A stretch of 64,000 nucleotides of DNA from Candidatus Zixiibacteriota bacterium (GTDB taxonomy: Bacteria; Zixibacteria; MSB-5A5; JAABVY01). Below, piece by piece: positions 9,834 to 60,770 of this stretch; position 1 is the first letter of the stretch; the number at the start of each line of letters is the position of its first letter. The DNA is taken from NCBI GenBank assembly GCA_011056555.1, contig DSEQ01000034.1:11-64010 (forward strand), written 5' to 3'. The notes below the pieces were generated by a model. It was not told the DNA's origin, made no database searches, and saw only the letters and a program-made list of their open reading frames with translations. Both the position numbers and the translations under genes were made by a program.

Positions 9834-9908
9834 TACGGGAAACCTGTCGCCCGGTATCCGAAAATTTTTTTGTTGCCCATCAAACCGGGCCACTATATCT
9901 TTTTTATC

Positions 9909-10313: not shown

Positions 10314-10327
10314 TTCTGCTCAAGGTA

Positions 10328-11239: not shown

Positions 11240-11258
11240 AAAAGAGAACAGGGATAAA

Positions 11259-15364: not shown

Positions 15365-15380
15365 CGGAGGTTTCGGAGTT

Positions 15381-15881: not shown

Positions 15882-15890
15882 GAGCAGGCT

Positions 15891-16943: not shown

Positions 16944-16966
16944 CTTACACATGGAGGATTTTTATT

Positions 16967-40723: not shown

Positions 40724-40748
40724 AAAAAGCCCGCTCGCGGGCTTTTTT
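40724..40748. terminator. bidirectional rho-independent terminator shared by the convergent rplS operon and the CIS/kinase operon
   Basis: AAAAAGCCCGCtcGCGGGCTTTTTT: A-run/GC stem-loop/T-run symmetric on both strands; the TAA stop of the minus-strand PP2C gene lies inside the T-run. Confidence 0.65.
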
Positions 40749-42105
40749 ATTCCTGTTTGAAATTATCGAGGTCGAGCAGGAGATTGCCGACCCGGAAAGT
40801 CTGGTTCATCCTGGCATACACCAGCCCCTCATCATCGCGCAATTCCAGTATATGATAACCCGGTTCCAGTCCCAGCTGGTCTTTCATAAACTGCGAGACA
40901 GTACCCTGCGGTATCATATCCACATATAAGGTGTGATCGAAGATGGAATCGGGAAAATTATGAAATTTAATGAATACCGTGCCCACAGCCTCGGCTTGAG
41001 CACCGACATTTTCATTATTAGAACCGGTCACCCGGCTCATAAATTCATCCACCGGCGGCCTGACCCCGCCGATATTATAGGCATATGCGAGGTAAGCCAG
41101 GATTGCAATCAATACAATAAATGAAAGCACATACCAGGCAAAGGCGCCCTTGCTTTCGGGTTTGTCCCGATAAACGGGAACCGGTCCTGTTATCTGCTCA
41201 CCGGGAGATTTGCTGTCTTCGGTTTCCTGCCTGGAGGCGAATGCCTTTCGCAGGATATCGTCTTCAATCTTTAGCTCCTGGCTCGTTTCCTCGTCCACAG
41301 TCTGCTGTACCAGATCCTTGGAAAAATCGTCCGGGCTCTTGATATCCAGAACCTTAACTACAGCAACAGTAATATTGTCTTCGCCCCCGCTGGCATTGGC
41401 GCGTTCTATCAGCTCTTTGCAGATTTTGTCGAGGCTGGCATTTTCCCTGGATAGCGTCTGGAGAATATTCGCATCGGAAACAAATCCGCTCAGGCCGTCC
41501 GAGCACAGCAGGTACAGATCGCCATCTGCAATCCGATCCTTGCGGATATCCACTTTGACATTCTCCCTTGTTCCCAGAGCCCGGGTAATCACATTTTTAT
41601 TTACAAAGTTTTCGGACTCTTCCTCTGTAAGCTGATTGCTGCTGATAAGCTCATTGACCCAGGAGTGATCGACAGTCAGCTGCTCCAGATTGCCGTTTCG
41701 CAAACGGTATACCCTGCTGTCGCCGACATGGCAGATAATCACATGATCACCGGCCATCTGCACCGTAACGACAGTGGTACCCATGCCGCGCATCTCTTTA
41801 TTGCGTACCGATTGATTGAAAATCCTGCGGCTGGCCAGCCGAATAGCATGTACAAGTATTCTGCTTTCTTCCCCGAAGCCTTTCTCGAGCTGGAGAGTTT
41901 CCGGTATAGGACCGAAATCAGCGGGGGATGCTACCGCGGCCGCAATGGTTTCAGCCGCGAGCTCAGAGGCCACCTCGCCGGCGGCATGACCGCCCATGCC
42001 GTCGCAAACCACCGCCAGATTTTTTTCCTTGAGGAGTTTATAATTATCCTCATTCAGCTCTCGGACCAATCCCACATCAGTGCGGGCTGCAATTTCTAAT
42101 TTCAC
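40747..42105 (-). CDS. membrane-anchored PP2C-family Ser/Thr phosphatase with C-terminal extracytoplasmic domain
   Basis: 452 aa; PP2C motifs (TDVGLVRELNEDNY; VCDGMGGHAAGEVAS; VGDSRVYRL; CSDGLSGFV; GGEDNITVAVV), then TM (AFAWYVLSFIVLIAILAYLAYAY), then ~110-aa C-terminal domain; GTG start. Confidence 0.85.
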   Translation of the reverse strand: MKLEIAARTDVGLVRELNEDNYKLLKEKNLAVVCDGMGGHAAGEVASELAAETIAAAVASPADFGPIPETLQLEKGFGEESRILVHAIRLASRRIFNQSVRNKEMRGMGTTVVTVQMAGDHVIICHVGDSRVYRLRNGNLEQLTVDHSWVNELISSNQLTEEESENFVNKNVITRALGTRENVKVDIRKDRIADGDLYLLCSDGLSGFVSDANILQTLSRENASLDKICKELIERANASGGEDNITVAVVKVLDIKSPDDFSKDLVQQTVDEETSQELKIEDDILRKAFASRQETEDSKSPGEQITGPVPVYRDKPESKGAFAWYVLSFIVLIAILAYLAYAYNIGGVRPPVDEFMSRVTGSNNENVGAQAEAVGTVFIKFHNFPDSIFDHTLYVDMIPQGTVSQFMKDQLGLEPGYHILELRDDEGLVYARMNQTFRVGNLLLDLDNFKQE

Positions 42106-42111
42106 AAATTC

Positions 42112-43422
42112 CTACTTAAAAATGATAATTAGTACAATAATAATCAGCAATATTCCAATAGCGCCCAGAAGATAAGGCAAATACAAATTTTTTCCAATGC
42201 TTGTAACGGCACCTTTACCGGCATCCGGCGGTGAAAAATCGAAATGGCCTTCCTCGGCCACACGAAAAATCGTGCTCTCCTTAACCGACGATATTTCCAC
42301 GACATCGCCGATATTCACAGGCAGCACTTCATCGGTCGAAATAGTCCGGCCATTGAGCCTGGTACGCATCTGGCTGGCCCTGTCAGATAAATAAAACCGG
42401 CCATCCTTAAACTCTATTTCTGCGTGTTTTCGGGATATACTCTTATCAATCTCGCCTTTACTGTCGCTCCTGATGACTATATCGTTTTGCTTGCGATCCC
42501 GGCCGATGCGGTTTATATCTTTTTTCAGCCTGAATTTTTCCCCTTTCAAGGGCCCGCTGATCGACAGAAGATAAATATCGAGTTCACGTTGGGGTGATAT
42601 CTGCTCGGGCTCTGAGGGCTGTTCCCGGGTAGATGGCAGAATTTTTGTCTTATGCACATCATCACTTTTTCTCTGGCTCTGAGGAGGTTCAGGCGTATCT
42701 GCCGGTTTCGGCACTTCCTTTCGAGGAGGAGGCGCGGGCGGTTCCGGCTCGGTTTTTCTATCTGGCGGTCCTGGTGATTCGGGCTCTGGTTTTGCCTCCG
42801 CGCCTTTCTGCGGAGGTGCAGGCTCGGGCGCAGGTGCGGGAGGTTCCGGTTCCTTTTCGACTTTTTCAGGGGCGGAATCCTCCAGATCAGGATCTATCGT
42901 AATCTCTTCTGTCTTCATATGATGAATATCTTCTCCGGACGACTCTTCAGTAAGCTTTGCAGGCTCGGGAGATTCGGGCTCCGGCGGCTTTGCCGGAACC
43001 TCCGGCGGCTTTTCATCCGGCAGCTCAGGCTTTTTCTCAGCCGGCAGATCTTCCTCTGTCTTGGCCGGGGGCCCCGATTTTTCTTCCGGCTTGAAGTCAG
43101 GTGCTTTTCCTTTCGCCGGCATTTCATCAGGCAGAACATTCAGGATCAGGTAATAGTCCTCGATCCTTATAGTATCGCCGTCCTCGAGCTTCACATCACC
43201 CTCCACCCTTTCTTCTGTAACAAACACAGGAGGCAGGTGAGTCATGAGCTGCAGGTGGAAACCGTCGTCTCTCAAGACCAGCCTGGCCAGTTCGGGGGCA
43301 ATGGAGGGGTCCTCTATCGGCACATCGCATCCAGTTGAACAGCCGATGGTAATTTCATCCTTGTAAGGCAGATTATAGGTCTTGATAATCTCAGGGCCCT
43401 TCTGTACAATTATTTTAGGCAT
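42112..43422 (-). CDS. FHA-domain protein with Pro/Glu-rich repeat linker and C-terminal tail anchor
   Basis: 436 aa; degenerate FHA-like N-terminus (ITIGCSTGCDVPIED..), long PEP/PAP-rich low-complexity region, canonical FHA (RIGRDRKQNDIVIRSD..ISRKHAEIEFKDGRFYLSD..S.NGT), terminal TM (LLGAIGILLIIIVLIIIF). Confidence 0.75.
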   Translation of the reverse strand: MPKIIVQKGPEIIKTYNLPYKDEITIGCSTGCDVPIEDPSIAPELARLVLRDDGFHLQLMTHLPPVFVTEERVEGDVKLEDGDTIRIEDYYLILNVLPDEMPAKGKAPDFKPEEKSGPPAKTEEDLPAEKKPELPDEKPPEVPAKPPEPESPEPAKLTEESSGEDIHHMKTEEITIDPDLEDSAPEKVEKEPEPPAPAPEPAPPQKGAEAKPEPESPGPPDRKTEPEPPAPPPRKEVPKPADTPEPPQSQRKSDDVHKTKILPSTREQPSEPEQISPQRELDIYLLSISGPLKGEKFRLKKDINRIGRDRKQNDIVIRSDSKGEIDKSISRKHAEIEFKDGRFYLSDRASQMRTRLNGRTISTDEVLPVNIGDVVEISSVKESTIFRVAEEGHFDFSPPDAGKGAVTSIGKNLYLPYLLGAIGILLIIIVLIIIFK

Positions 43423-46056
43423 CTACTCCCTCTTCAGCTCTTCCTCAATTTTATATTCATTATTTTCCTTAATGCTCTTGCCGTCATCCCAGCCCTTATA
43501 ACCGTCCTTGTCGGCAATTAGCTTATATTTTCCGGCCTCGAGCTGAACTGCAAGCTGGCCGAATTCATTCGTCGTGCCCAGGTATATTCTCTTTCTATCA
43601 TCTTTTCTTTCGGCAAGAATGTTGACACCCTCCAGCGGCTCATCGCTATCATCATCCTTGAAAACGAAAATGAGCATGGCCTTTTCCATAACCTCCTCGG
43701 GCTCTTCGACCGGCTCTCCCTCATCCTCCTCCTCTCCGACCTTACGCATAACAGCCTTCAACTCCGTCTGATTTACACCGATCACAAAACTGGTATCAAT
43801 ATAATCCCGCTTACTGAGATATATTCTGTGCTCCACACCTGTCAAAAGCAAATTTATCGGCGTCTTGTCGGCCGATTCGGAAAGACGTCCCTCACTTTCA
43901 ATTTTGGTGATTCGCGCTCCAATATCTCCGCCTTTCGGATTGGAGGCTGCAACCGCGGTGACAGCGACCTCGCGATACAATTCATAAAATAGCGAACCCT
44001 GGAAATTCTCGTCGATATCAACCAACCTGACCTTGTCTTCAAATCCGGACTTTACCAGCCTGATTCTGGCTTGACCAAAAGGTATCATGACATTATCGGG
44101 CGTCTGGCCCACAGGTTCATCCTGGTCCTCCAGATAAATATCGGCTCCCTGGGGTTTACTGGAAATTTTTATATTCTTCCGAAATCTCCCGGTGATCTCC
44201 GGAAGTTCATTCTCTTTATTGTAACTATAATCCCAGAGGCCTTCATTATCAGTCTTGAAATCTCCCGAGGAGACATTGAAGCCGGCAAGTCTCAGGGCGC
44301 CTGAAGCCTTTTCATGCTCGAGCCGAATATCAACGCTATCAGTTAAAGGTATCGGAACCAGAGCAGGGGTAACCGCGGGGTAAAGATTGTTATCCACAAA
44401 TATTGATGCTCCCTGCGGGATGGAATTGATACGTGCCTCTCGCTTCAAAACGAAATTAGGAAAGGTAATTTGATCGCCCTCTTTCAGGACGAACTGGGTA
44501 TCAATCGGGCTGGCCTTGTCCATTTCGATACGGAGATTGTACTGTCCTGCGTCGAGCTGATTGATCTGCAACGGAGTTTTTCCCGACTTTTCTCCATTAA
44601 GAAAAACAACCGCACCTTCCGGAACAGAATTTATCCATACCGCATATTCCCCGGAAGGGCCGCTGCTTCCACCTGCGCCCCCGATCAAAGTGCCGATTAT
44701 AAGAAGCAGAATTAAAATTATTATTGCACCGCCGCCATACACCCAGATTCTTTTGTCGGCGCGCTTGAGGGCGGCCAGGGATGACTGAAAGTCGAAAGCG
44801 GGCTTCTTCCTCTTGAATGACGGAACTTCCCTGACTACCGTTTTAGCATCGGCGCTCTCGCTTGAATATATTGATGTTCTGGCTTCGTCTCCTGAGGTGT
44901 CATGGATAACAGTCCGGGCCTCTTCCGACGTACTATCATAGATTACCGTTTTGGCTTCTTCCGGTTCAGCTGCCGGTTCTCTTTTCGGCTTCTGCTCCCC
45001 TGTCTTCCGTTCTTCAGGCGGCCCGGGTTTCGGCCCCACAGGTTCAGGTTCCGGCGGAGTACTCAGGATTTGTGTTTTGATTTTCTGCTGGCTGTTCTGC
45101 CGGGTTGCTTTTTCCTCAGCTTCCACAGGCTCCTTAACATACATGGAATGCACCAATCGTGACAGATCCGAGGTGGGCTCACCCGGAAAATATTTTCGCG
45201 AGAGATGGTACAGGTCGACATACATTTCATTGGCTGACTTATACCTCTCAGACCTGTCTTTCTTCAGGGCCTGACGGATCACATCAGAACAACCCTCGGG
45301 CAGATCGACAGTTTCCAGGGGTGCAAAATCAATTTGCCCCGAGGTAATCTTTTTCATAACCGTGAAATCCGAATCGCCCGAAAAGAGTTCTTCACCGGTG
45401 CACATCTCGTAAAAAACCGAACCAAGCGAGAAAATATCGCTCTGGCGTGTAGCTTCTTTACCCTCCAGCTGCTCGGGAGACATGTAGGCCACCTTACCTT
45501 TGACGAAACCGGTTTGGGTCTTCTGCACTATACGGTTGCGGGCCTTGGCAATGCCGAAATCAATCAGCTTGACCGAGCCCTCCACGGTGAGCATGATATT
45601 CGAGGGCGAGATATCCCTGTGCACGATATTCAATGGCTGCCCGGATTTTCTATCCTTGAGGTTATGCGCATATTCGAGCGCTTTGCAGATTTCGCTAATA
45701 ATGTGCATGGCCATGTTTTTCGGCATGGTCTCGTTGCGATCGTTATAGTAATCGATCACCTCGCGCAGATCGACGCCTTCGATAAACTGCATGATTATAA
45801 AGACGCGATCATCGGGAGTTTTCCTGAGACTGTAAACCTGTACTATATTGGGATGGTTAAGGCGGGCTGTATTGACGGCCTCGTCGATGAACATATCGAC
45901 ATACTGCTTCTCACCCAGCAGAGATTTAACAACTTCCTTTATCGCAACGGGACGATCGAGAGTCAAATCCCAACCGTAATATATAGTGCCGAAACCTCCC
46001 GCTTTGATCTCGCGGATGATTTCATACTGCTCATCTATAATCCTGCGCGCGCTCAT
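43423..46056 (-). CDS. Hanks-type Ser/Thr protein kinase with TM segment and extracytoplasmic PEGA repeats
   Basis: 877 aa; kinase subdomains (GGFGTIY..VAIK; HRDISPSNIML; DFGIAK; SPE), Pro-rich linker, TM (IWVYGGGAIIILILLLIIGTLIGG), then at least 3 PEGA-like repeats (INSVPEGAVVFLNGEKSGKTP; INSIPQGASIFVDN; SSKPQGADIYLEDQ). Confidence 0.9.
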   Translation of the reverse strand: MSARRIIDEQYEIIREIKAGGFGTIYYGWDLTLDRPVAIKEVVKSLLGEKQYVDMFIDEAVNTARLNHPNIVQVYSLRKTPDDRVFIIMQFIEGVDLREVIDYYNDRNETMPKNMAMHIISEICKALEYAHNLKDRKSGQPLNIVHRDISPSNIMLTVEGSVKLIDFGIAKARNRIVQKTQTGFVKGKVAYMSPEQLEGKEATRQSDIFSLGSVFYEMCTGEELFSGDSDFTVMKKITSGQIDFAPLETVDLPEGCSDVIRQALKKDRSERYKSANEMYVDLYHLSRKYFPGEPTSDLSRLVHSMYVKEPVEAEEKATRQNSQQKIKTQILSTPPEPEPVGPKPGPPEERKTGEQKPKREPAAEPEEAKTVIYDSTSEEARTVIHDTSGDEARTSIYSSESADAKTVVREVPSFKRKKPAFDFQSSLAALKRADKRIWVYGGGAIIILILLLIIGTLIGGAGGSSGPSGEYAVWINSVPEGAVVFLNGEKSGKTPLQINQLDAGQYNLRIEMDKASPIDTQFVLKEGDQITFPNFVLKREARINSIPQGASIFVDNNLYPAVTPALVPIPLTDSVDIRLEHEKASGALRLAGFNVSSGDFKTDNEGLWDYSYNKENELPEITGRFRKNIKISSKPQGADIYLEDQDEPVGQTPDNVMIPFGQARIRLVKSGFEDKVRLVDIDENFQGSLFYELYREVAVTAVAASNPKGGDIGARITKIESEGRLSESADKTPINLLLTGVEHRIYLSKRDYIDTSFVIGVNQTELKAVMRKVGEEEDEGEPVEEPEEVMEKAMLIFVFKDDDSDEPLEGVNILAERKDDRKRIYLGTTNEFGQLAVQLEAGKYKLIADKDGYKGWDDGKSIKENNEYKIEEELKRE

Positions 46057-47480
46057 TTTTTCTCCGGCGCCTCCGAAAATCCAAATTTAACCGGATCGGT
46101 GGCAATAATCATCGCCGCCATTATCTTGGGAACATACTCCACCGTCTCATTGTGCAACATGTCATTTTTCACAAGATACCAGAATCTATTTTGCTCGATC
46201 ACATCCATCCTCATCAGGGCATTCCTGATTCTCCCCAGGCCTGTGTTGTAGGATGCCATAGCCAGCATATAAGAGTTATACAAATTATATAATTGTTTAA
46301 TATATTTACAAGCAGCTTCGGTGGATTTTTTCGCATTAACTCGTTCATCCATATCATTATTCACGGTCAGGCCGAAATCTCGTGCGGTTGCCGGCATAAA
46401 CTGCCAGAGCCCGCGGGCGCCGGCGGGGGATGTGGCTGTGCTGTCGTAGCCGGATTCCACGAATGCCAGATAAGCGAACTCTTCGGGCAAACCCGCACCC
46501 CTCAACATGCGCCGCACCATGCCCATATGCATCTCCGACCTTTCCAGCGAGCGTTCAAACCAGCCGCGCAAATTGCCTGTGAACTTATCCACATATTTTA
46601 CGGTATTCTCGACGAATATCAAGGGTATTTCATTCTGCGGATCGCCCAGATCCTTCGAAAGCCTTATCAAGCGGTAGCTGACATATTCCTGCAGGGTCTG
46701 CCGCGCGAGGCTTCTTTTCTCTTCCCATGGTTGATAGACATAACGGTATCCGGCCCCTGCCAAAAGAACGACAAATATGATCGGCAGCAGTACCTTCAGC
46801 AGCCTGGTGAATAGAGGACGGCGGAATTTGGCCCCCTCACCGATTCCAATTTGCGGCCCCTTTTCTCCGATCATGATGCTGTCGCCGAATTTCAAAGCGG
46901 CGGTGGTAATTCTCTCGCCATTTACATAAGTGCCATTGGTAGAATCCAGATCCTTTATGGATATTGTCGGCGGAATATAATTTATTTCGGCATGTATCCG
47001 CGAGACCATGGGCATATCCAGAGTTAGATCGCAGGCTGAATCCCGCCCGATCTCTATTCTACCGGGCAGAAACTCATAAGATTCCCCGCCGTCAACCTTC
47101 AGAAGCAGTTTTTTGGAAACTGCCTGAACCATCTGCGTCCTGTCAGCAGAACTTCTTTTTCGCGGTTTCTCGGATCGCCCGCTTTCACTGAATGTGACTT
47201 CAATCTCCGGACCGCCCTGGCCGAAGCTTACATGATCGCCAGATGATACAAATCCGGAATTATGATGATTGCCGTTTACAAAAGTGCCGTTGGAAGAACC
47301 CAGGTCGGAAAGATAGAGGCCCTCCGCCTTGACAGTGAACCTGCAGTGCTCGTAAGATACTATATCAGAATTAATGGACAGGTCGGCATCCTCCGACCTG
47401 CCAACTAATACACTGGATTGATTAAATTTAAGTCGTTTTCCTGTATTTTCACCGGATATAAATTCAAATGCTATCTCCAA
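46053..47480 (-). CDS. tandem-FHA protein fused through a TM segment to a periplasmic SLT lytic transglycosylase domain
   Basis: 475 aa; two FHA domains (VLVGRSEDADLSI..SYEHCRF..LSDLGSSNGTFVNG; IEIGRDSACDLTL..VSRIHAEI..IKDLDSTNGTYVNG), TM (LLKVLLPIIFVVLLAGAGY), SLT motifs (AFVESGYD...GARGLWQFMPATARDFGL); ATGA overlap with the kinase gene; TTG start. Confidence 0.85.
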   Translation of the reverse strand: MEIAFEFISGENTGKRLKFNQSSVLVGRSEDADLSINSDIVSYEHCRFTVKAEGLYLSDLGSSNGTFVNGNHHNSGFVSSGDHVSFGQGGPEIEVTFSESGRSEKPRKRSSADRTQMVQAVSKKLLLKVDGGESYEFLPGRIEIGRDSACDLTLDMPMVSRIHAEINYIPPTISIKDLDSTNGTYVNGERITTAALKFGDSIMIGEKGPQIGIGEGAKFRRPLFTRLLKVLLPIIFVVLLAGAGYRYVYQPWEEKRSLARQTLQEYVSYRLIRLSKDLGDPQNEIPLIFVENTVKYVDKFTGNLRGWFERSLERSEMHMGMVRRMLRGAGLPEEFAYLAFVESGYDSTATSPAGARGLWQFMPATARDFGLTVNNDMDERVNAKKSTEAACKYIKQLYNLYNSYMLAMASYNTGLGRIRNALMRMDVIEQNRFWYLVKNDMLHNETVEYVPKIMAAMIIATDPVKFGFSEAPEKK

Positions 47481-47490
47481 CTCAATTCAC

Positions 47491-49707
47491 CTATCCAGTC
47501 TTAAAAATTAAGTCGATTTGACCTATAGAAATCACATCGTTATTGATCAGAACCCTTCGAGTTATCCTGTTCTTGTTAACCATCGTGCCATTGGTGGAAC
47601 CCTGGTCGATCAGCTCGTACTTGCCTCCAGAGTATTCGATGGTTGCATGATTGCGCGATACCCCCTCGGAAGGCAGGTGAATGTCATTTGCTTTGTCGGC
47701 TCCGATTTTATTGGTTCCTTTCATAAGGTGAAATTCATGCTGGGGAGCATCGCCGGATTTGACCTCCAGCATGGCTTCCCCTATCTGAGCCTTCTTGCCC
47801 TTCTTCGACGCGGCCACAATTATTATAATGATAATCAGCAGAATAACCACGATAAGGACTATCAGCAGGATCAGGCCGTACTTCTCAAGGAAGCTCTCAC
47901 CTTTTATAGCCACTTCCTCACCGCTGGGTTCGCTGTACTCGTGGCTGCTGGTAATGAGATTGCCGTCCATATCAACATCGACGCTGACACTAATTTCACC
48001 CTCTACAGGAAGGCCGGATACCGCCAGCGCATACTGGCCGCGGATAAGGGCTATCGATCTCCTGAAGAGAAAATAGATCATATCGTCTTTATCAGCAGAG
48101 TAGAAGAAACCGCCGCTGAGATCGGCAATCTTCCTTATCTCCTCCAAAAATTCGGGCGATTTTTCATTGTCATACCCCAGCGTATATATCTGCGGGAGAT
48201 CATGCGACCGCTTATAATCTTCAAGGGTCTTAAAATTGTTGCGGCTCGACTCACCTTTGCTATTAGTGACCACCACAAAGATCGGGTATTTTTCCGCGCC
48301 GGAGGTGTCATAATAATTCAAAGCCTCTAAAACCGCATCATAAAGCGGGGCCTTCTGACCGTTAAACTGGAGATTATTTATTGCCGTCTTCTGCGTCGAA
48401 AAAGATTTTTCCAGAGGCATGGCAAGTTCGATATTATCGGCAAATTTGAAAAAGGCAACCCGATGGCGGGATTCGTCCAGCTTGGCCAGAAATTCTGTGG
48501 TCAGCTTTTCCTTTATTAGATTGATCTCATTCTCTTTCAACCCCACAGTGCCGAGCAGGAAGATAAAGTCAATTTCATCCTCCCGAAACTGTGGATGCGC
48601 CTTCTGGATTTCCAACTCCTGTTCCCCGACCTTGATCCCGGGGAAATTTTCAGCTATCAGCCCGCTGACAATATTTCGGTTATCCTCGAAGACAGACAGC
48701 ACAACCAGATTTTGACTGGGAATCACCCGGTTAATGGTTATATTTTCAGTGGAATCAACATTGGACGATATAACCGCCTTTTTGATGATTGTCTCTTTTA
48801 CTGTTTTTTCGGCCACCAGAGAGGGAAGCTCGGTCAGGGCAAATTTCCAGATTGTCTCATTCTTATTATCGAGAACATAACAGACATCCCGCCCGGCAAC
48901 ATCAACAGATATCGGTTCATCAAGCATACCGCCGCTGAACGGCGCCTCCCATTGACCTGACTCGAAATCTGCGGTGAAAAAGACCACCTTTTCCTTCTTA
49001 TCCAGAACAAAGAGCTCACCGTGCTGGTTGACGCACAGGTCAACCGGCTCCCCGATTTCCTTGCCTCCGAATTGCACCGGAATTTCTATAATCAGCGAGC
49101 CTTCACTATTGAAAACCTGCACTGTCTTTTTCTTCTCATCAAGAACGAAGACCCGTCCCTGATGATCGACATCGACAGCAATTGGATCCTCGAAGCCGGC
49201 CCCCTGCAAAGTACCAAGATCCTGTCCGTCTTCATCGAAAATACGGACATTATCTTTGTCCTTATCGGCAACGTAAACGCGGCCGTCACGGGCAACCGTA
49301 ACCGACATGGGCCGACCGAACGTCTTTTCGCCGCCTATCGTGCCCTGCCGCATACCCTCCTGGGTAAAGCGCGAGAGCTCATCACGGTCGCGATCCACCA
49401 CGTACACCAACCCATCGATGCCGATATCGATATCCTGGGGAACCTCGATGTCGTCATCACCAATTGGAATAGACCTCAAATACTGGCCGTTACCTGAAAA
49501 TACCTGCACAAGATTATTGCGGGCCGAGCCGATATATATTTCACCTCCCGGGCCGACATAGATAGCCTTGACATTGGAGACCTCGCTATCACCTGTCCCG
49601 CCGGGCAGTTTTATACGCGGCAGGCTTTCTACTTTAATTGCAAAGGCATTGGAAACAAGAAACAGTGCGGCAACTATGCCCCATAAAATCAAATTCCTTT
49701 TCGACAT
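47491..49707 (-). CDS. signal-peptide NHL-repeat beta-propeller + vWA-like domain, TM, C-terminal cytoplasmic FHA domain
   Basis: 738 aa; signal peptide; at least 5 NHL-like blades (YVVDRDRD..; RVYVADKDKD..; RVFVLDEKKK..; ELFVLDKKEK..; VCYVLDNKNE..); vWA-like segment (FLLGTVGL..VVVTNSKGESS..IYTLGYD); TM (LILLIVLIVVILLIIIIIIV); FHA (KIGADKANDIHL..VSRNHATIEY..LIDQGSTNGTMVN). Confidence 0.75.
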   Translation of the reverse strand: MSKRNLILWGIVAALFLVSNAFAIKVESLPRIKLPGGTGDSEVSNVKAIYVGPGGEIYIGSARNNLVQVFSGNGQYLRSIPIGDDDIEVPQDIDIGIDGLVYVVDRDRDELSRFTQEGMRQGTIGGEKTFGRPMSVTVARDGRVYVADKDKDNVRIFDEDGQDLGTLQGAGFEDPIAVDVDHQGRVFVLDEKKKTVQVFNSEGSLIIEIPVQFGGKEIGEPVDLCVNQHGELFVLDKKEKVVFFTADFESGQWEAPFSGGMLDEPISVDVAGRDVCYVLDNKNETIWKFALTELPSLVAEKTVKETIIKKAVISSNVDSTENITINRVIPSQNLVVLSVFEDNRNIVSGLIAENFPGIKVGEQELEIQKAHPQFREDEIDFIFLLGTVGLKENEINLIKEKLTTEFLAKLDESRHRVAFFKFADNIELAMPLEKSFSTQKTAINNLQFNGQKAPLYDAVLEALNYYDTSGAEKYPIFVVVTNSKGESSRNNFKTLEDYKRSHDLPQIYTLGYDNEKSPEFLEEIRKIADLSGGFFYSADKDDMIYFLFRRSIALIRGQYALAVSGLPVEGEISVSVDVDMDGNLITSSHEYSEPSGEEVAIKGESFLEKYGLILLIVLIVVILLIIIIIIVAASKKGKKAQIGEAMLEVKSGDAPQHEFHLMKGTNKIGADKANDIHLPSEGVSRNHATIEYSGGKYELIDQGSTNGTMVNKNRITRRVLINNDVISIGQIDLIFKTG

Positions 49708-49719
49708 ATCCCCTCCAGC

Positions 49720-50178
49720 TTAGAGGCACTTGAACATCATCTCGGTCTGTCCGATTTTGATGTGATCGTTATCAATCAACTCCCACTCAGTCTGCGGCTC
49801 GCCGTTAACAAAGGTCTTGTTCTTGGAGCCGAGATCATTGATATAAAACGAACCGCCCTCATAGCGGATGGCGCAATGAGGTGAGGAAAGATAATCATCG
49901 TGTACGACTATATCCTCGTTCTGGGTGGGGCCGATCGTATATTTGCGATCATCCAAACGGTAATCCTGTCCTTTGTAGGTACCGTTGATTATAACCAGCC
50001 AGGCCACGACCGGAAGATCCTGCTGGGTTTGTCCGACTCCGACAACCCTGGTCTTTCCTCTTCCGCCTCGAGCATCCACAACCCGGGTTGCCTGAGATTT
50101 CTTCTTATCTCTCTTAGGCATCTTGGGCACATCCTTTCGTGATAATCTAAAAAATCTTCCGAAGATATTGAATCTCAT
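49720..50178 (-). CDS. small FHA-domain protein
   Basis: 152 aa; basic N-terminus then FHA (YTIGPTQNEDIVVHDDYLSSPHCAIRYEGGSFYINDLGSKNKTFVNG). Confidence 0.8.
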   Translation of the reverse strand: MRFNIFGRFFRLSRKDVPKMPKRDKKKSQATRVVDARGGRGKTRVVGVGQTQQDLPVVAWLVIINGTYKGQDYRLDDRKYTIGPTQNEDIVVHDDYLSSPHCAIRYEGGSFYINDLGSKNKTFVNGEPQTEWELIDNDHIKIGQTEMMFKCL

Positions 50179-50205: not shown

Positions 50206-51747
50206 TTACACGACTGTCTGGTAGAACCAGTATCCAAACATATTTACGTCTCTCTCGGCCGAGATTGCAATCTGTTTGACATTCACCTCTTCCTTCTTGA
50301 TAAACTTGCCATTGATGATGTAAGGCATATTCCGCCAGCGATACTTGCGGTCATTGCCGGTAATCTCCCAAACCCCCACTTTTTCGCCATCGACCTCAAT
50401 CTCAGTCTTAAGCCCGCCATAGGCATAATCGATTCTCCGTATCACCAAGACATCCAGCTCCGGCTTCAGATTCTTGATCTTGAACTGCGCGAAGCCCTCC
50501 CAGTGCAGACGGCCGCGGTCGGAAATCCGGGTGCCGTCAGGGAAGAAGAAATTCTGCTTCTGCCTCAGCTCTTCCTTCACTCCTCCCAGCTTGAACTCAT
50601 GTTCCTTCTCGGAAGCATCATCCAGTATATCTATCTTATCAACTAATTTATAGCGCACATTGTCAACCATAATTTCTTCCGGAAATTCCTTGGGCCAGAT
50701 TTTGATCTCATCCATCGACAGGCGTTCGCCTTTAAATTCCTCCAGCTCGCCCTCGACCTCAGCCCTGATTTCTGCCACCCTGGGCGCCAGGAGCTTTTTC
50801 AATGCTCCGGAGGCCTTGGCCTGGTAGATTATCAGGTTATTCAAATCCTCCGAGGTTATATCGGTTGCCGAGGTCAGATTCAGAAGCGCCTGAAGATTAT
50901 CTTTGTATTCGCCGACCTCTTTGCGCTGTGAGAGGTTGGGGGTATTCTCGAGCTCATTGGAAATCTCTTTCTCCAGATCGACGATTATTTTCAGCAGTTT
51001 AAAGGCGTTACGGTAATCGAGCTTCCCGGCAATACTGACCATCTCGGCAGTAATTGCCGACTGGTAGGCCTCCAGAGAGTACTTTAGATCATAAAGTTTG
51101 TTGAGCTGCATAAAGACCAGCTTCATATCATTGTAGACCGCAAAGATGCGGGAGACCACCTCGGGCGAGAGAATCCATCCGAAGGTACCGGCTATGGGCA
51201 CAAAGCGGGCATCGATTTCACCGGTTTCGGGATGTGACGGATCTGCCGGATTTTTGACATCCTTAAGTTCCTCCTCCAGCCGAACTCTGGCGAGTTCGAT
51301 TCCCTCATCAAGCTCGGGCGGATTGGGAAGAATTTCGACCTTGGCTCTTTCGGCAATGCGCTTATGCCCCTTGTATTGCGGATTAGCCTTGTTGGTGATA
51401 AAATCTACCGGTTCATCATAGTATTTCAGGACAACATAGACAACCATGGGAAGCTTATATTTGGACACATCAATAGCAAGGACCTTCGTTTCCCAGAGCA
51501 TGATATCGTTCCCCTGTCCATCGGTAGCATACCCCGGCGCAACTTCAATCGAAAAATCGCCCTTCTCCCTTGCGGTTACTTTCAGCTCGCCCGAAAAGTT
51601 GAGCACAACTCCCGGCGAATGAAAGAGCTGATTGTGCAGCTTATCCTTCTCCCGGGAATAATCGACAAGCAGGTTAAAATCCTCCTCCGAGGCAAAGAAG
51701 CCGCGGAAAAATGATACCCTTTTATATTCCTTACTCTCCTCGGTCAT
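50206..51747 (-). CDS. uncharacterized CIS-associated protein (513 aa) in the tail-fibre/baseplate-wedge position
   Basis: follows the gpI-like gene with a 17-nt overlap; no recognisable motifs; P2-like order V-W-J-I-(H) suggests a fibre or distal baseplate role. Confidence 0.4.
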   Translation of the reverse strand: MTEESKEYKRVSFFRGFFASEEDFNLLVDYSREKDKLHNQLFHSPGVVLNFSGELKVTAREKGDFSIEVAPGYATDGQGNDIMLWETKVLAIDVSKYKLPMVVYVVLKYYDEPVDFITNKANPQYKGHKRIAERAKVEILPNPPELDEGIELARVRLEEELKDVKNPADPSHPETGEIDARFVPIAGTFGWILSPEVVSRIFAVYNDMKLVFMQLNKLYDLKYSLEAYQSAITAEMVSIAGKLDYRNAFKLLKIIVDLEKEISNELENTPNLSQRKEVGEYKDNLQALLNLTSATDITSEDLNNLIIYQAKASGALKKLLAPRVAEIRAEVEGELEEFKGERLSMDEIKIWPKEFPEEIMVDNVRYKLVDKIDILDDASEKEHEFKLGGVKEELRQKQNFFFPDGTRISDRGRLHWEGFAQFKIKNLKPELDVLVIRRIDYAYGGLKTEIEVDGEKVGVWEITGNDRKYRWRNMPYIINGKFIKKEEVNVKQIAISAERDVNMFGYWFYQTVV

Positions 51748-52627
51748 CTTGTTTCCCTTCCTCTATTTCTTCATGAACATTATCCGTTTCACCAACCCAT
51801 GATTCCACGCCGATCATGGAGGCCACACCGACCTGCATGAAGTCGGCCTCCTCGAGCTCGGGCTCGGCGAAGATCATGTAGTAATTTGTATGCGCGGGTT
51901 TTTCCGCCTGTACAATCGCATGAATTTTGCGAATCATCTCAACCGGCGTATCATCGATTGTCTGCGGAATCCTGACTGTAAAGCAATGCGAACGATCTAT
52001 ATAGCCGATTATAATTGAATCTACTCCAATGGTCGAGGACACCCCCACCTGAAAACCGTTAAAGGGCCAGTAATTCTCAATAATCTCCGGGGTGCTTTCA
52101 GTATAAATTTTCAGATATAATGCCAAGCCCCGCGAGGTTCCCCGCAGCTTATATATCTTTACGATATTGGCAATCAATTCGCGTTTCTTGGCCTCATCCC
52201 AGTTTTCATCGAGAACCAGCGCCAGAACCGATGCCAGATAGGGCAGGAATTTATCCGGGGTATTAAACGGCTCGAAATATGTGTGTATATCCCTGATTGT
52301 ACGGTCGATCGGGATTTGCGGATGTTTCAATAACCACAGGAACCGCTTCAGGAACGAGCCCTCGCGCATATCGTATTGACGGTATATATTCGGCAGGAAG
52401 TTGAGATAGCTTTTGCCCGATATCACCAGTCTGATACCCTCCGCCGGCACAGGCTGATCGGCCTGTGGATTCTGGATAATTATCCGGCCCTCGGGCTCCA
52501 GCGATTCCTCAAACTCGATTGTGCGGATTTTTATGCCATCCAGGCGGCACATCTTCTCCGCTTTTTCAATATCGAGCCCGATAAAATTCGGAACTGTCTT
52601 TTCAGCTACTGCGGCTTCAGTAACCAT
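51731..52627 (-). CDS. phage tail protein I (P2 gpI-like) baseplate component with N-terminal PASTA-like domain
   Basis: 298 aa; N-terminal PASTA-like fold (VPNFIGLDIEKAEKMCRLDGIKI..GRIIIQNPQADQPVPAEGIRLVISG); gpI-family core (FLPYLASVLALVLDENWDEAKKRELIANIVKIYKLRGTSRGLALYL). Confidence 0.7.
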   Translation of the reverse strand: MVTEAAVAEKTVPNFIGLDIEKAEKMCRLDGIKIRTIEFEESLEPEGRIIIQNPQADQPVPAEGIRLVISGKSYLNFLPNIYRQYDMREGSFLKRFLWLLKHPQIPIDRTIRDIHTYFEPFNTPDKFLPYLASVLALVLDENWDEAKKRELIANIVKIYKLRGTSRGLALYLKIYTESTPEIIENYWPFNGFQVGVSSTIGVDSIIIGYIDRSHCFTVRIPQTIDDTPVEMIRKIHAIVQAEKPAHTNYYMIFAEPELEEADFMQVGVASMIGVESWVGETDNVHEEIEEGKQDDRGE

Positions 52628-55600
52628 TTAGTAATCTCTTCTCACCTGATAGCTGTTAACGTCAACAACATAAAACAGCTGGTCCGCTTTGGCCGGCACC
52701 TTATCGACAAACAGCTTGCGCTGTTCATCAAAAATTTCCAGACGGTCTATGTATTCAACTCCGTCAGTATCCTCGACTACACGATACAAATCCGTTTTAA
52801 TAAGCGCCTTTCCGAAAGGCCAGCCTCTGCCGTCGCTCCCTCCCCTGAGGGGATGCAGGTAATTTCTGATATTATTCTCAAGATCGCGTTTAACGCGTTC
52901 CGGGTCGGCGCCGGTGGCCTTGGTCTGGTAGCTGACCTCGAACGAAACCTCCAGATAGGTGGGCCGATTGACGTGCAATTTTGTGGTCAGCAGGCGCCGC
53001 GGCTCCAGATAATCGGTCACCATATTCAAAAGCTGAGTGGTGGGCATAATTTTGGAGCCTTCTTTTTCCTGCGAGGCGGATTCATTGGGAACTATCACCA
53101 AGGTTACTTCGCCCTCGGTGGGGCAGTTGGAGATACAATGCACCCGGGCGATATTCGATGAGGCCCTCTGGGCCAGCCATTCATAATCCTCGGAGGTTAC
53201 TGCACGGAACCTGTTTCTGAATATTTGCGGAGCCCGCAGTTTGGCGTCGGAAACTGATTCCAGATCAGAACCGCCTACAGCCGGGAAATAATTAACCACC
53301 GACTGCACCGAAGGATTGGATCGCCTCAATATTGTTAAAGACTTTGCGCCGACATTGCCCTCGCTCCCTCCACCAGTACGGTAATTGCGGGCAACGATTG
53401 AATTCGAGCCTGACGGCGGACGCATCCCCTTGCGGCCGTCCCCGAATTTGATCCGGCCGGTTATGTGGTCAAGCACATAATGTCTCGAGGTACCATTCGA
53501 ATTGTAGAAATTATCGACTTCATGCCAGCGCACCCATATCTTTGAGGGATTTCCCGTGCTGTCGGCTTCGATTTCAACGGCATCCTCGCCTTCCTCGGCT
53601 TTTATGGTCTCTATCTCTTCCTTATTTGGAGGGGTCAATTCGCGGACATATATCATCTGCCCCTCAAGGACAGGCGGATTTGAGAATTTGAAAACCTGGT
53701 CAGGAGTACCGTCGGATGATCCCAGTACCTCATTTATTATAGTAGAATGATTGCGCGCCATAACGCTGTTGGTCAGAACAGCACGCATCTCCGGCGGCGC
53801 GGCATATCCGCCGTCTCTGAAACGGCAGCGTATCCAGTAGAGCTCATGTCCGAATTTTTCGGTCTTTGAAAATCCCCGGGGGAACTCAAAGCGCACTATT
53901 CCGCTATTCTTGAAGTTATTGGTATTATCATAAGGCAGAAGATCGGCCCAATCCTTGCCGTTAAAATATTCCCACCAGATTTTCTGCTCCACGCGGGTAT
54001 CGCGGAATATTTCCTCTCCGAAATATTTGGTCGTAACCTCATCCATTGGCAGCCTCTGATCCTCTTTCATATTGAAGCAAAGCGCATAGGTCTCCTTGGG
54101 CAGCACCGCTTCAAATCCAAGATAGAGTGAGGGCGAGCGGTCGCGTTCCTCCTCGAAAAGCTGGAAGGGCTTGTATTCCTCGCTCACATTGCTCGAAAAA
54201 TCGCGGTACGTGAAATCGGCATAAGATTTCAGGCTGGACAGGAAAACCGCCTTCTGGTTATACCTGAGGGTCAGAGAACGGATACATGGCGGCCGCAGCG
54301 GATTGTCATCTTTCCAGACCCAGTTTTTACCCACCTGCTCATAATGACCCGCCTGGCCATAATTACCCTTCGTCAAACGGCAGCGAATCCAGAATCCGTC
54401 CAGGCCGTTGACCTGAGTCGGCTTCATGTCCTCGGGACGATCGAATTTTATCTCCCCTGAGTGAGTGAATGCAAGGGTCGAATCAATAAAGTTAAATTTA
54501 CCCGCGGGCCTTGAGACTCCCGACGGCAAAGTTGTCCCGAGCTCGATCCATTTCTTACCGTTGAAGTATTCCCAGATTAGTTCCAGATCGGAGGACGGCA
54601 CCGGATTTTCGACCACAGATGGGTCGGCCAGCCCGACATCGATTATAATCTCCGAATCTTCTTTGCTGAAAATATCGGGAGATGAGAGGTATAACGTGTA
54701 ATCATATTTCGGCTCTTCCGAAAATGGATAAACGCTCTTGGAAAAATCAAGCGGCAGAAAGATTGATCCGGCAATGTTTGAGAATCCAGCGTCGGGATGG
54801 GGCCCGTCCTCAACAATTTTCGCCTCGAGCGAAATAGTGTCCATTTCAGTAACCTCAGGCGAGGCCGGTATTGCAGCCAGGATCGCCTTGAACCAATATG
54901 TCTCCACGCCGTCTATTTCGGTTTTCTCCAGATCTGAAAGCGGGCCGGAAATTTCCAGCAGAGTTTCATTTTCACCCAATGCTTCAGTATAGACCATGCG
55001 GGTCTTCAATTCTTTGAATCGCTTGCCGTTGAAATATTCCATTCGCAGCATGGTCATCAACGCCTTGCCCTCCTCCGAGGCGGCCTTGAACCTCAGGAAA
55101 AGGCTGGCAGATTCCGTGAGCGCGGATAATTTTTCATCCCCCATGAAAATGGCGCGTTCTATCTGCGATACTCCCCCGAATACCGGAAAGCCCTCATCGG
55201 AGGGATTATTTATATATCCGCTGTTGTCCGATATAGCATCCCCTGCAGTCGAGAAAACTCTGGCCAGCTTTACAGGTGAAAGATTTAAATCTTCGGCTGT
55301 TTCAAAAACTACGCTCTCAACCGCCTCTGTCTGGCTGGTGGCAACCTGGGTACCCTTCGGCACTGTGGTGGTCTTCTCCAGACCCTTATTTGGTTTGAAT
55401 GTCAGGTATGTCTCCGCCGGCTGCGGCAGCAGTAATGACATGCCGATAAGATCAAGTAGAGCGACATAGGTTTTATCCGAGACTTTGTTTAGCTTATAGA
55501 TCGTCATCTCGGTGAGCCAGGAAAACAACTCCAGAAGGGTAATTCCCGGGTCTGAGGGATTATGATCTGTCCACTCCGGGCAGTACTTTGGAATCAGCCT

Positions 55601-55663
55601 CCGGAGTTCATCCATTATATCCCTGTGCGTCCGATCATCAAGATTTGGGGGATTTATTGGCAT
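52628..55663 (-). CDS. baseplate J-like protein (gp6/Afp11-like putative baseplate assembly protein)
   Basis: 1011 aa; N-terminus PNLDDRTHRDIMDELRRLIPKYCPEWTDHNPSDPGITLLELFSWLTEMTIYKLNKV matches the conserved start of CIS/phage baseplate-J proteins. Confidence 0.85.
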   Translation of the reverse strand: MPINPPNLDDRTHRDIMDELRRLIPKYCPEWTDHNPSDPGITLLELFSWLTEMTIYKLNKVSDKTYVALLDLIGMSLLLPQPAETYLTFKPNKGLEKTTTVPKGTQVATSQTEAVESVVFETAEDLNLSPVKLARVFSTAGDAISDNSGYINNPSDEGFPVFGGVSQIERAIFMGDEKLSALTESASLFLRFKAASEEGKALMTMLRMEYFNGKRFKELKTRMVYTEALGENETLLEISGPLSDLEKTEIDGVETYWFKAILAAIPASPEVTEMDTISLEAKIVEDGPHPDAGFSNIAGSIFLPLDFSKSVYPFSEEPKYDYTLYLSSPDIFSKEDSEIIIDVGLADPSVVENPVPSSDLELIWEYFNGKKWIELGTTLPSGVSRPAGKFNFIDSTLAFTHSGEIKFDRPEDMKPTQVNGLDGFWIRCRLTKGNYGQAGHYEQVGKNWVWKDDNPLRPPCIRSLTLRYNQKAVFLSSLKSYADFTYRDFSSNVSEEYKPFQLFEEERDRSPSLYLGFEAVLPKETYALCFNMKEDQRLPMDEVTTKYFGEEIFRDTRVEQKIWWEYFNGKDWADLLPYDNTNNFKNSGIVRFEFPRGFSKTEKFGHELYWIRCRFRDGGYAAPPEMRAVLTNSVMARNHSTIINEVLGSSDGTPDQVFKFSNPPVLEGQMIYVRELTPPNKEEIETIKAEEGEDAVEIEADSTGNPSKIWVRWHEVDNFYNSNGTSRHYVLDHITGRIKFGDGRKGMRPPSGSNSIVARNYRTGGGSEGNVGAKSLTILRRSNPSVQSVVNYFPAVGGSDLESVSDAKLRAPQIFRNRFRAVTSEDYEWLAQRASSNIARVHCISNCPTEGEVTLVIVPNESASQEKEGSKIMPTTQLLNMVTDYLEPRRLLTTKLHVNRPTYLEVSFEVSYQTKATGADPERVKRDLENNIRNYLHPLRGGSDGRGWPFGKALIKTDLYRVVEDTDGVEYIDRLEIFDEQRKLFVDKVPAKADQLFYVVDVNSYQVRRDY

Positions 55664-56064
55664 CAGGCCTCACTTTTTTGCAGATAAAATGGATATACCA
55701 AATTAAAAACATTATTCGTGGTTCTAACTTTATAATCAATTGAAATATTTACTATATGCGGTTGTGCCGGATCGGTCAGTGCTTTAACCTCGATATCGAC
55801 AATTCTCGGCTCCCATTTGACCAGCGCCTCCTCCACATGGTAAACCGCCAGGCTTCTTGTATTGGCATTGTTGGGCGCGAAAACCAGGTCATGAATTCCG
55901 CAGCCGAAGTCGGGACGCATTTGCCTCTCGCCAAATGCGGTACCAACAATCAGGATTATCGCTTCCTCGATATCCTCCTCGTAGCGGGACATCGCCACTC
56001 CGCCGCGCTGATTTACAGAAACTGGAAATTTGTATCCTACTCCCAGAAAATTGCGCCGGGGCAT
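55663..56064 (-). CDS. gp25/GPW-like baseplate wedge protein (lysozyme-like fold)
   Basis: 133 aa; FLGVGYKFPV...AIILIVGTAFGERQMRPDFGCGIHDLVFAPNN...EALVKWEPRI, the GPW_gp25 signature. Confidence 0.85.
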   Translation of the reverse strand: MPRRNFLGVGYKFPVSVNQRGGVAMSRYEEDIEEAIILIVGTAFGERQMRPDFGCGIHDLVFAPNNANTRSLAVYHVEEALVKWEPRIVDIEVKALTDPAQPHIVNISIDYKVRTTNNVFNLVYPFYLQKSEA

Positions 56065-56460
56065 TTATCCTCCAATCATCACAGTTCCGACCGCGACCAC
56101 AGTTCCGACCGGCAGGTCCGCCGGATCGTTACAGGTCATCGCAGTATCACCCATCCTGGCTGCAGGCTTGCCGTTAATCATTACAGTTGCCGATCCGCGT
56201 ATAATCTTGCCTTTATTTGTCGGGGGCTTTTGGAAAGGTCCGCCCTGGGGGATATGCGGAGGCGTATTCGTGGCTTCGCTCCCCATAACCGCAGCTCCCA
56301 TGTTCATGATGTTCACATCCGTGGAACATCCGCTGTTTATTAGGCCATTGAATGGATGCGGCAAAGGAGTGGGCACTGGCCCTCCCGGGGTAGATATCAA
56401 GATAATATGAATATCCACCGCAACAATCTGATCTCCCATTTTTGCCGCAGGCATTCCCAT
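56065..56460 (-). CDS. PAAR-repeat spike-tip protein
   Basis: 131 aa; PAAR-like motifs (AAKMGD.., GKPAARMGDTAMTCN), Gly/Pro-rich beta-rich small protein immediately downstream of the spike gene. Confidence 0.8.
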   Translation of the reverse strand: MGMPAAKMGDQIVAVDIHIILISTPGGPVPTPLPHPFNGLINSGCSTDVNIMNMGAAVMGSEATNTPPHIPQGGPFQKPPTNKGKIIRGSATVMINGKPAARMGDTAMTCNDPADLPVGTVVAVGTVMIGG

Positions 56461-56479
56461 ATCATATCTCCATTCTTAC

Positions 56480-57148: not shown

Positions 57149-57160
57149 ATCGTTAACTCC

Positions 57161-60767: not shown

Positions 60768-60770
60768 ATG

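Follow-up and report, generated by a model that had tools for sequence, protein, structure and literature searches.

A membrane-spanning fusion of FHA domains with an MltD-type transglycosylase domain, encoded beside a contractile injection system in a Zixibacteria genome

The work described here touches the question of how contractile machines cross the wall of the cell that produces them and how their firing is confined in space and time. [quoted passage not shown] In Acinetobacter and Burkholderia, TagX is an inner-membrane-anchored peptidoglycan hydrolase encoded in T6SS loci (PMC13584744). The best-studied T6SS borrows a housekeeping enzyme, MltE, and a few T6SS loci encode a hydrolase of their own (TagX). 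Assembly of the T6SS is controlled by the TagE/TagG/TagH threonine-phosphorylation pathway, in which TagH binds phospho-TssL (PMC13584744). For the cytoplasmic contractile injection system (CIS) of Streptomyces, CIS-Sc, docking and firing need the bitopic membrane adaptor CisA (PMC12237407), and among haloarchaeal CISs a T6SS-like mode correlates with a membrane protein encoded in the cluster (PMC11566945). The locus compared here with these systems lies in a stretch of 64,000 nucleotides from Candidatus Zixiibacteriota bacterium (assembly GCA_011056555.1, contig DSEQ01000034.1, positions 11 to 64,010 of the forward strand), the whole of which is called the window. A sequence-only reading had singled out one of its genes, because the product appeared to join two FHA domains across the membrane to a lytic transglycosylase (SLT) domain, beside a kinase gene and a CIS. 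This gene and its product, the FHA-SLT protein of 475 amino acids (aa), were followed up by computational analysis. Its features, with the evidence for each, are as follows (TM, transmembrane; ORF, open reading frame; AF2, AlphaFold2 model; pLDDT, the per-residue confidence of that model).

46053..47480, minus strand: FHA-FHA-TM-SLT gene, 475 aa, TTG start (ORF list, Pfam, identical database protein P0001)
47487..47492, minus strand: Shine-Dalgarno sequence AGGTGA, 6 nt 5' of the TTG start (sequence read)
47187..47480, minus strand: FHA1, residues 1-98, cytoplasmic, with G27, R28, S42, H45 and N64 (Pfam, AF2, Foldseek, conservation)
47121..47186, minus strand: disordered linker between the FHA domains, residues 99-120, with T115 in DRTQMV as candidate phospho-acceptor (pLDDT)
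46827..47120, minus strand: FHA2, residues 121-218, cytoplasmic, with G145, R146, S160, H163 and N182 (Pfam, AF2)
46737..46811, minus strand: single TM helix, residues ~224-248, N-in/C-out (hydropathy, positive-inside analysis, AF2 helix)
46569..46736, minus strand: periplasmic helical stalk, residues 249-304 (AF2 helices 224-260, 263-277 and 287-301)
46065..46568, minus strand: MltD-type (family 1D) lytic transglycosylase catalytic domain, residues 305-472 (phmmer, Foldseek, Pfam SLT)
46452..46457, minus strand: codons of the catalytic Glu342-Ser343 (conservation, alignment with the MltD ES motif)
46053..46056, minus strand: ATGA stop/start overlap of the FHA-SLT gene and the kinase gene (sequence read; also in loci L001 and L002)

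A protein 100% identical to the FHA-SLT protein (P0001) is annotated in a metagenome-assembled genome (MAG) of candidate division Zixibacteria, and the same FHA...SLT architecture is common to more than 100 database clusters. For these reasons the ORF is a genuine gene and a chance ORF was dismissed. Two FHA domains were found by Pfam at residues 6-88 and 143-205 (PF00498, 1.2e-36, 125.4 bits, above the gathering cut-off) and an SLT domain at residues 330-422 (PF01464, 1.1e-24, 86.7 bits against a cut-off of 21.3); the Pfam family of the FHA-like cytoplasmic domain of YscD of the type III secretion system (T3SS) matched as well. The protein has one hydrophobic segment (~226-248), the N-terminal flank of which is rich in K and R, and hydropathy and topology analysis found no signal peptide. 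This puts the FHA domains in the cytoplasm and the SLT domain in the periplasm, and the product is a bitopic inner-membrane protein in which two cytoplasmic FHA domains are tethered to a periplasmic MltD-type enzyme. Neither a LysM domain nor a lipobox was found by Pfam and TM/topology analysis.

An AF2 model built with 113 homologues (mean pLDDT 92.8) consisted of two beta-sandwich FHA domains, a long helix (224-260) and an all-helical C-terminal domain with pLDDT >90; residues 102-119 in the linker between the FHA domains had values below 50. With Foldseek the C-terminal domain superposed on Pseudomonas aeruginosa MltD (8rhi_B) at a root-mean-square deviation (rmsd) of 2.2 Å over 181 columns with 34% identity, 8rhe and 8rhf being matched too, and this superposition places it in the goose-lysozyme-like helical fold. 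The catalytic domain matched 8rhe in phmmer (E 1.8e-24), with E342-S343 aligned on the ES motif of MltD. The FHA folds matched GarA, OdhI and FhaA at rmsd 1.0-1.4 Å, and Rv1747 as well. The motif AFVESGYD occupies residues 338-345 and GLWQFMP residues 357-363, so that both G357-L-W-Q360 and, further on, A409-S-Y-N-T-G414 are present. The order of domains, the two catalytic motifs, the SLT fold with its glutamate, the periplasmic placement of the enzyme, the bounds of the ORF and its overlap with the kinase gene had all been read from the letters by the sequence-only reading, and all of them were borne out.

Conservation of residues was counted over the same number of homologues (113). E342, S343, G357, W359, Q360, Y411 and G414 were invariant in 113/113, the GLWQ and YN-G motifs as a whole being invariant or almost so, and R28, S42, H45 and N64 of FHA1 were kept in 112-113/113. 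G27, G65 and T66, which also belong to the residues that contact phosphothreonine (pThr), were kept to the same extent. Two FHA copies were present in 52 of the 113 proteins and one in the remaining 61, and the FHA2 residues G145, R146, S160, H163 and N182 were found in the window protein and in most of the members with two copies. This suggests that the FHA domains bind pThr, their pocket residues being intact, and that the transglycosylase domain, judged by its residues and its modelled fold, is catalytically competent and presumably active.

In databases such proteins bear only general labels, either 'FHA domain-containing protein' or 'transglycosylase SLT domain-containing protein'. None of the curated NCBIfam cut-offs was reached by the FHA-SLT protein, the best partial match being FhaB/FipA (103 against 125 bits), and GltG and TagH were among the other partial matches. 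An assignment as MltD orthologue was rejected, as the score was 88.3 bits against a cut-off of 508 (NF008050), LysM is absent and a TM anchor takes the place of the lipobox. Assignment as TagH orthologue was rejected too (57.6 bits against a cut-off of 120.25, TIGR03354), the match being limited to the FHA region.

The FHA-SLT gene is part of a cassette in which six genes lie close together, those for a kinase, a PP2C phosphatase and four FHA proteins. All but one of the six products are membrane-anchored, and the six FHA domains of the cassette are distributed over four proteins of which three are membrane-anchored. A Hanks-type kinase, a PP2C phosphatase and FHA readers are therefore co-encoded with the machine in the window. 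The surrounding features are listed below.

50206..57781, minus strand: CIS baseplate and spike module, comprising tube-LysM, spike, PAAR, gp25, baseplate-J, P2_I-PASTA and a 513-aa protein of no recognised family (Pfam, seed search, baseplate-J against 9gtp)
49720..50178, minus strand: small soluble FHA protein of 152 aa, its N-terminal tail bearing two K/A-T-R-V-V motifs (Pfam, motifs)
47491..49707, minus strand: signal peptide, periplasmic NHL propeller, TM helix and cytoplasmic FHA domain, 738 aa (Pfam, TM; homologue in L006)
43423..46056, minus strand: Ser/Thr kinase, TM helix and periplasmic PEGA/CarboxypepD_reg ectodomain, 877 aa (Pfam, TM, motifs)
42112..43422, minus strand: FHA, Pro/Glu-rich linker, FHA and C-terminal TM helix (417-435), 436 aa (Pfam, TM analysis)
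40747..42105, minus strand: PP2C phosphatase (Stp1/IreP family), TM helix 321-339, 452 aa (Pfam; NCBIfam 262 bits against a cut-off of 230)
40724..40747, no strand: palindromic terminator hairpin at the operon end, at the convergent junction with trmD (terminator scan)

Transcription runs from the CIS cluster through the genes for the 152-aa FHA protein, the 738-aa NHL-FHA protein, the FHA-SLT protein, the 877-aa kinase, the 436-aa FHA protein and the 452-aa phosphatase. From the CIS gene for the 513-aa protein onwards the gaps are 27, 12, 10, -4, 0 and 6 nt, the 738-aa gene ending 10 nt before the FHA-SLT start. This packing is compatible with co-transcription of the FHA-SLT gene with the membrane kinase and the phosphatase. 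The terminator scan found no convincing terminator between the CIS baseplate genes and the cassette, which are co-oriented across the 27-nt gap. The sole convincing one lies directly after the PP2C stop codon and before the convergent trmD/rimM/ffh genes. It is the perfect palindrome AAAAAGCCCGCTCGCGGGCTTTTT with A-run and T-run flanks (40724-40747), and is likely a bidirectional terminator. The 4-nt ATGA overlap between the FHA-SLT and kinase genes recurs in the orthologous loci L001 and L002. The strict stoichiometric coupling that the sequence-only reading had drawn from it does not follow; such an overlap suggests translational coupling at most. The same reading had put the gene next to the baseplate. 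The cassette does lie directly downstream of the CIS genes and in the same orientation, but three ORFs separate the FHA-SLT gene from the recognisable baseplate genes.

The juxtamembrane region of the kinase (residues 328-410, window ~44829-45075, minus strand) contains five K/R-T-x-I/V motifs, four of which form tandem repeats of ~12 residues (EEAKTVIYDS / EEARTVIHDT / DEARTSIYSS / ADAKTVVREV), and these motifs are conserved in the kinases of the Zixibacteria orthologues L001 and L002. They are candidate docking platforms, with several pThr sites, to which the operon's six FHA domains could bind. In the 738-aa protein the NHL region gave a weak NCBIfam match to 'CIS12 family contractile injection system protein' (34 bits against a cut-off of 860).

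The CIS cluster is ordered as sheath, gp19 tube, 847-aa protein, tube-LysM, spike, PAAR, gp25, baseplate-J, P2_I with PASTA and 513-aa protein. Upstream DNA of a matching contig contributes Pvc16_N, a further pair of sheath and tube genes and three paralogues of ~300 aa, so that the system as a whole (50206-62519, minus strand, plus L092) has two sheath genes and two gp19 tube genes with three paralogous ~300-aa genes between them. Its closest relative is CIS-Sc of Streptomyces coelicolor (sheath against 8bky, 4.7e-93; baseplate-J against 9gtp, 1.5e-90). For both proteins PVC, Afp, AlgoCIS and the Anabaena tCIS were far weaker matches. Homologues of TssJ/K/L/M, by which a T6SS would be identified, were not detectable in the 64-kb window. 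The organism is a diderm, since BamA (26766-29075) and LpxD (25172-26191) are encoded in the window.

The 513-aa (50206-51747, minus strand) and 847-aa (57781-60324, minus strand) CIS proteins had no Pfam or NCBIfam match, and the former had no significant match among PDB sequences either; the 847-aa protein sits in the tape-measure position, and the gene for the 513-aa protein separates the baseplate genes from the FHA cassette. The P2_I-like baseplate protein (51731-52627, minus strand) carries an N-terminal PASTA module (Pfam 1.9e-8), as do its orthologues in L002 and L092. It is unusual for a baseplate wedge of a CIS to bear such a module, which binds peptidoglycan or muropeptides; a connection with wall sensing or targeting is possible. 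Holin and spanin families were absent among the Pfam-scanned neighbours and the L092 annotations, a limited test in which small ORFs were not examined. Elsewhere in the window, and unrelated to the present finding, are a gene for a SprA-like protein of 2000 aa (3831-9833, plus strand), of the translocon family of the type IX secretion system, and an McsA/McsB/ClpC-like arginine-kinase operon (15330-19426, plus strand).

The genomic contexts of relatives bear on the connection with contractile machines. The Zixibacteria orthologues L001, L002 and L093 (55-88% identity), the last of them the one extra close relative obtained in a metagenome scan with a single protein, have a CIS-cassette gene order identical to that of the window. 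Outside Zixibacteria nine contexts were sampled via a gene-position index. Five of these are canonical T6SS loci, with the gene beside TssJ/K/L/M (L005, L008, L089, L091 and L094). Thus, L089 reads TssG-ClpV-VgrG-...-FHA/FHA-FHA-SLT/FHA/PP2C/STK-PEGA-...-TssJ-K-L-M (STK, Ser/Thr kinase) and L094 reads TssJ-K-L-M/FHA/FHA-FHA-SLT/STK-PEGA/.../VgrG. The set of kinase, PP2C phosphatase and FHA reader lies within the T6SS loci L089 and L005. In the other four contexts no contractile system occurred within 10 kb: the same five-gene cassette stands alone in L003/4, in L006 the FHA-FHA-SLT gene has as its only partner a gene for an NHL-FHA protein homologous to the 738-aa protein, and the gene is solo in L007 and L090.

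In L072, a Myxococcales MAG, the FHA-SLT gene lies between a CIS AAA+ ATPase gene and gp25/baseplate-J genes closely related to those of the window; genes for a kinase and another FHA protein lie between these and FHA-SLT, and the gene order differs. The FHA-SLT ORF of L072 (6568-8110) starts in the middle of the FHA domain, Pfam covering profile positions 36-67 only, as could result from a frameshift, from misassembly or from decay of the copy. A CHASE2-sensor kinase gene precedes the FHA-SLT gene in Fibrobacterota and Chitinivibrionales, with no injection machine nearby. An example is L021 (Chitinispirillaceae, 6504-11626), where a gene for a FecR/LysM protein and one for a Ser/Thr kinase with a CHASE2 sensor come before it; the sensor kinase that accompanies the transglycosylase therefore differs between phyla. 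No contractile system lay within 10 kb in loci L009, L011, L013, L021 and L050 of Fibrobacterota and Bryobacteraceae. In Sorangium (L061, L064 and L066) an unfused MltD-like SLT gene and a divergent 430-aa FHA gene were seen ~4 kb from TssJ-K-L-M. The arrangement in these cultivable myxobacteria resembles the fusion split into two genes.

A genome-wide family-alignment scan keyed on the GLWQF motif gave 80 loci, of which eight were true fusions and the rest mostly plain MltD-like. The unfused MltD-like loci were reused as an internal control, and one seed-based detection was applied to every locus of >=15 kb with a radius of 10 kb. Contractile core genes were found within this distance in 7/16 fused lineages and in 1/48 unfused MltD-like loci (Fisher p = 1.3e-4; odds ratio 36), numbers that come from small samples and from seeds taken partly from the positive loci, although the T6SS of Sorangium was detected by them at 1e-22 to 1e-75. 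A Ser/Thr kinase was present within 10 kb in 13/16 fused lineages and in 5/48 unfused loci (p = 2.7e-7). At least six family members that branch separately are linked to a T6SS or CIS, with differing gene orders. In a distance tree the T6SS-linked members branch apart from each other and from the Zixibacteria clade, and the GC content of their contigs ranges from 0.40 to 0.70; the separate branches and this range indicate that the T6SS-linked homologues are diverse. The cassette is thus attached by different lineages to T6SS loci and to Streptomyces-type CISs (in Zixibacteria and one Myxococcales MAG). Of the tie to the CIS that the sequence-only reading had assumed, the recurrent linkage and the enrichment stand, but the cassette is not exclusive to contractile machines (L003, L006, L007, L021 and L090).

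The reading that is held to be probable, if only just, is that the FHA-SLT protein is a signal-directed local wall opener for the contractile machine, working within the kinase/phosphatase/FHA cassette. An envelope cue sensed through the PEGA ectodomain would activate the kinase, which would phosphorylate threonine sites, foremost among the candidates being its own five juxtamembrane motifs. The transglycosylase and the other bitopic FHA proteins would dock on these sites with their FHA domains. Docking would concentrate, and possibly activate, the cutting of peptidoglycan where the baseplate meets the inner membrane, so that the sacculus would be opened locally for the machine, and the PP2C phosphatase would reset the system. 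The enzyme had been described as phosphorylation-gated from the letters alone; recruitment dependent on pThr would be at least as likely as allosteric gating and, the latter having to act through a single helix, seems more plausible. Wall opening for passage is one of two live readings of the purpose of the cut, because the CIS is of the Streptomyces cytoplasmic type, the known role of which is regulated cell death.

Several points weigh against local wall opening for a machine. About half of the sampled contexts are without a contractile system within 10 kb, and the FHA-SLT protein can therefore work without one. The synteny among Zixibacteria may be simply by descent. Control of the enzyme itself would mean that binding in the cytoplasm alters activity in the periplasm through one TM helix. 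Systems of the CIS-Sc type cause death of the producer cell rather than secretion (PMC12237407). For every member of the FHA-SLT family the basis is computational. A GarA-like self-binding pThr motif at T115 in the linker was kept as a weak idea only, since its conservation is partial (the loose pattern occurs in only 40/113 homologues).

The other live reading is that of regulated autolysis or cell death, in which the kinase-controlled transglycosylase would degrade the sacculus broadly and either free CIS particles in the style of extracellular CISs or complete a death that the CIS has triggered. The CIS resembles Afp/PVC in its genes (a Pvc16_N terminator is present and TssJLM are absent), the closest solved relative, the cytoplasmic CIS of Streptomyces, mediates stress-induced cell death via a membrane adaptor (PMC12237407), and an elaborate kinase/phosphatase checkpoint would suit a dangerous, self-lethal activity. 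However, homologous cassettes are found inside canonical T6SS loci by the membrane-complex genes, where lysis has no part, and an MltD-type enzyme tethered to the membrane reaches nearby peptidoglycan only. In addition, no holin, spanin or endolysin-type partner was present among the scanned neighbours, small ORFs not having been examined. Broad degradation of the sacculus is therefore considered unlikely. The same cassettes in T6SS loci bear on the view that a general signalling cassette for envelope and peptidoglycan homeostasis, comparable to PknB/PstP/FhaA/FipA of actinobacteria, has no tie to the CIS and that its adjacency in Zixibacteria is inherited synteny. The stand-alone cassettes and kinase-FHA-SLT pairs (L003/4, L006, L021) and the solo genes (L007, L090), all without contractile genes within 10 kb, agree with this view, as does the kinase (13/16) rather than an injection machine being the near-universal neighbour, and FhaB/FipA is among the best NCBIfam partial matches. 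It accounts poorly for linkage to a T6SS or CIS in at least six separately branching members with different gene orders, for the 36-fold enrichment (odds ratio) over unfused MltD-like genes, and for a cassette that is co-oriented with the baseplate genes across a 27-nt gap with no terminator between. An origin of the neighbourhood without any functional tie is thus quite unlikely.

It could also be argued that phosphorylation plays no part and that the protein is a structural anchor, the FHA domains being a scaffold as in YscD/PrgH of the T3SS or EssC of the type VII secretion system, and the SLT domain merely gripping peptidoglycan. The match to the Pfam YscD cytoplasmic FHA-like family points in this direction, and proteins composed of FHA, TM helix and periplasmic domain are common in trans-envelope machines (GltG and TagH among the NCBIfam partial matches). 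Yet R, S, H and N of the pThr-binding pocket and the catalytic Glu-Ser are essentially invariant in the 113 homologues, and kinase and phosphatase are co-encoded, which makes a purely structural role very improbable. The signal-directed local wall opener can also be extended to a bolder proposal, possible but on balance doubtful, namely that a Streptomyces-type CIS in a diderm phylum acquired a T6SS-style threonine-phosphorylation checkpoint, with the bitopic FHA proteins, including the transglycosylase, as a phospho-assembled membrane adaptor and wall opener that replaces TssJLM. If true, this would be an independent route for a phage-tail-like machine to fire outward through a Gram-negative envelope, and FHA-TM-SLT proteins would be a general, previously unrecognised accessory class common to T6SS and CIS.

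Specialised peptidoglycan hydrolases for envelope machines and control of the T6SS by threonine phosphorylation are known already. What is new is that FHA and SLT are physically fused and that this fusion occurs on a CIS of the Streptomyces type in a diderm candidate phylum. The full-text literature searched yielded no account of FHA fused to SLT, nor of CIS loci with kinase/FHA cassettes, and no protein of this kind is listed in a 2026 review of T6SS accessory factors (PMC13584744). A pThr reader joined to a peptidoglycan cutter offers a testable mechanism for signal-directed local wall opening. The occurrence of the same cassette on canonical T6SSs and on a Streptomyces-type CIS in an uncultured diderm phylum suggests that the module is portable between types of machine, and the cassette offers a way to approach how CISs in candidate phyla act. 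The split arrangement in Sorangium could serve as an experimental entry point.

Compared with known systems, the enzyme itself is nearest to MltD (8RHE/8RHF/8RHI), with which it has a homologous catalytic domain and the ES, GLWQF and AYN-G motifs in common. MltD is a lipoprotein with C-terminal LysM repeats. The P. aeruginosa structures have a C-terminal LysM after the catalytic domain, whereas the FHA-SLT protein has none, is held by an N-terminal TM helix instead of a lipobox and carries two cytoplasmic FHA domains. As to the site of action, MltE at TssM is likewise a lytic transglycosylase that remodels the wall locally where a contractile machine is assembled, and homologues of the FHA-SLT protein are encoded next to TssJ/K/L/M; MltE, however, is a housekeeping enzyme whose gene lies outside the T6SS locus and which TssM recruits in the periplasm, with no cytoplasmic domain or phospho-reader. 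TagX has in common with the FHA-SLT protein that it is encoded in the machine locus, is anchored in the inner membrane, has a periplasmic C-terminal catalytic domain and supports assembly of the membrane complex. It is an L,D-endopeptidase (VanY-like) and no transglycosylase, without FHA domain or coupling to a kinase.

The signalling part of the cassette resembles the TagE/PpkA-TagG/PppA-TagH/Fha1 pathway, in which a contractile machine is likewise encoded together with a Hanks-type membrane kinase, a PP2C phosphatase and FHA readers, and TagH licenses assembly by binding phosphorylated partners. In the window the reader is fused to a peptidoglycan hydrolase, the ectodomain of the kinase is PEGA, whereas that of PpkA is vWA-like, and the machine is a CIS other than a T6SS. 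A membrane kinase, a PP2C phosphatase and FHA adaptors that control peptidoglycan metabolism also make up the mycobacterial PknB/PstP/FhaA/FipA(FhaB) module, and the FHA domains of the FHA-SLT protein are structurally closest to GarA, FhaA and Rv1747; the mycobacterial adaptors, though, are not fused to a hydrolase and are tied to growth and division instead of an injection machine. CisA, for which recruitment of the baseplate to the membrane and a function as stress checkpoint have been proposed (PMC12237407), is bitopic with the same N-in/C-out topology, and its gene lies in the cluster of the CIS that is the closest characterised relative, a likeness of topology and cluster type. Its cytoplasmic region is unstructured and its ectodomain solute-binding-like, with no FHA domain, hydrolase or kinase.

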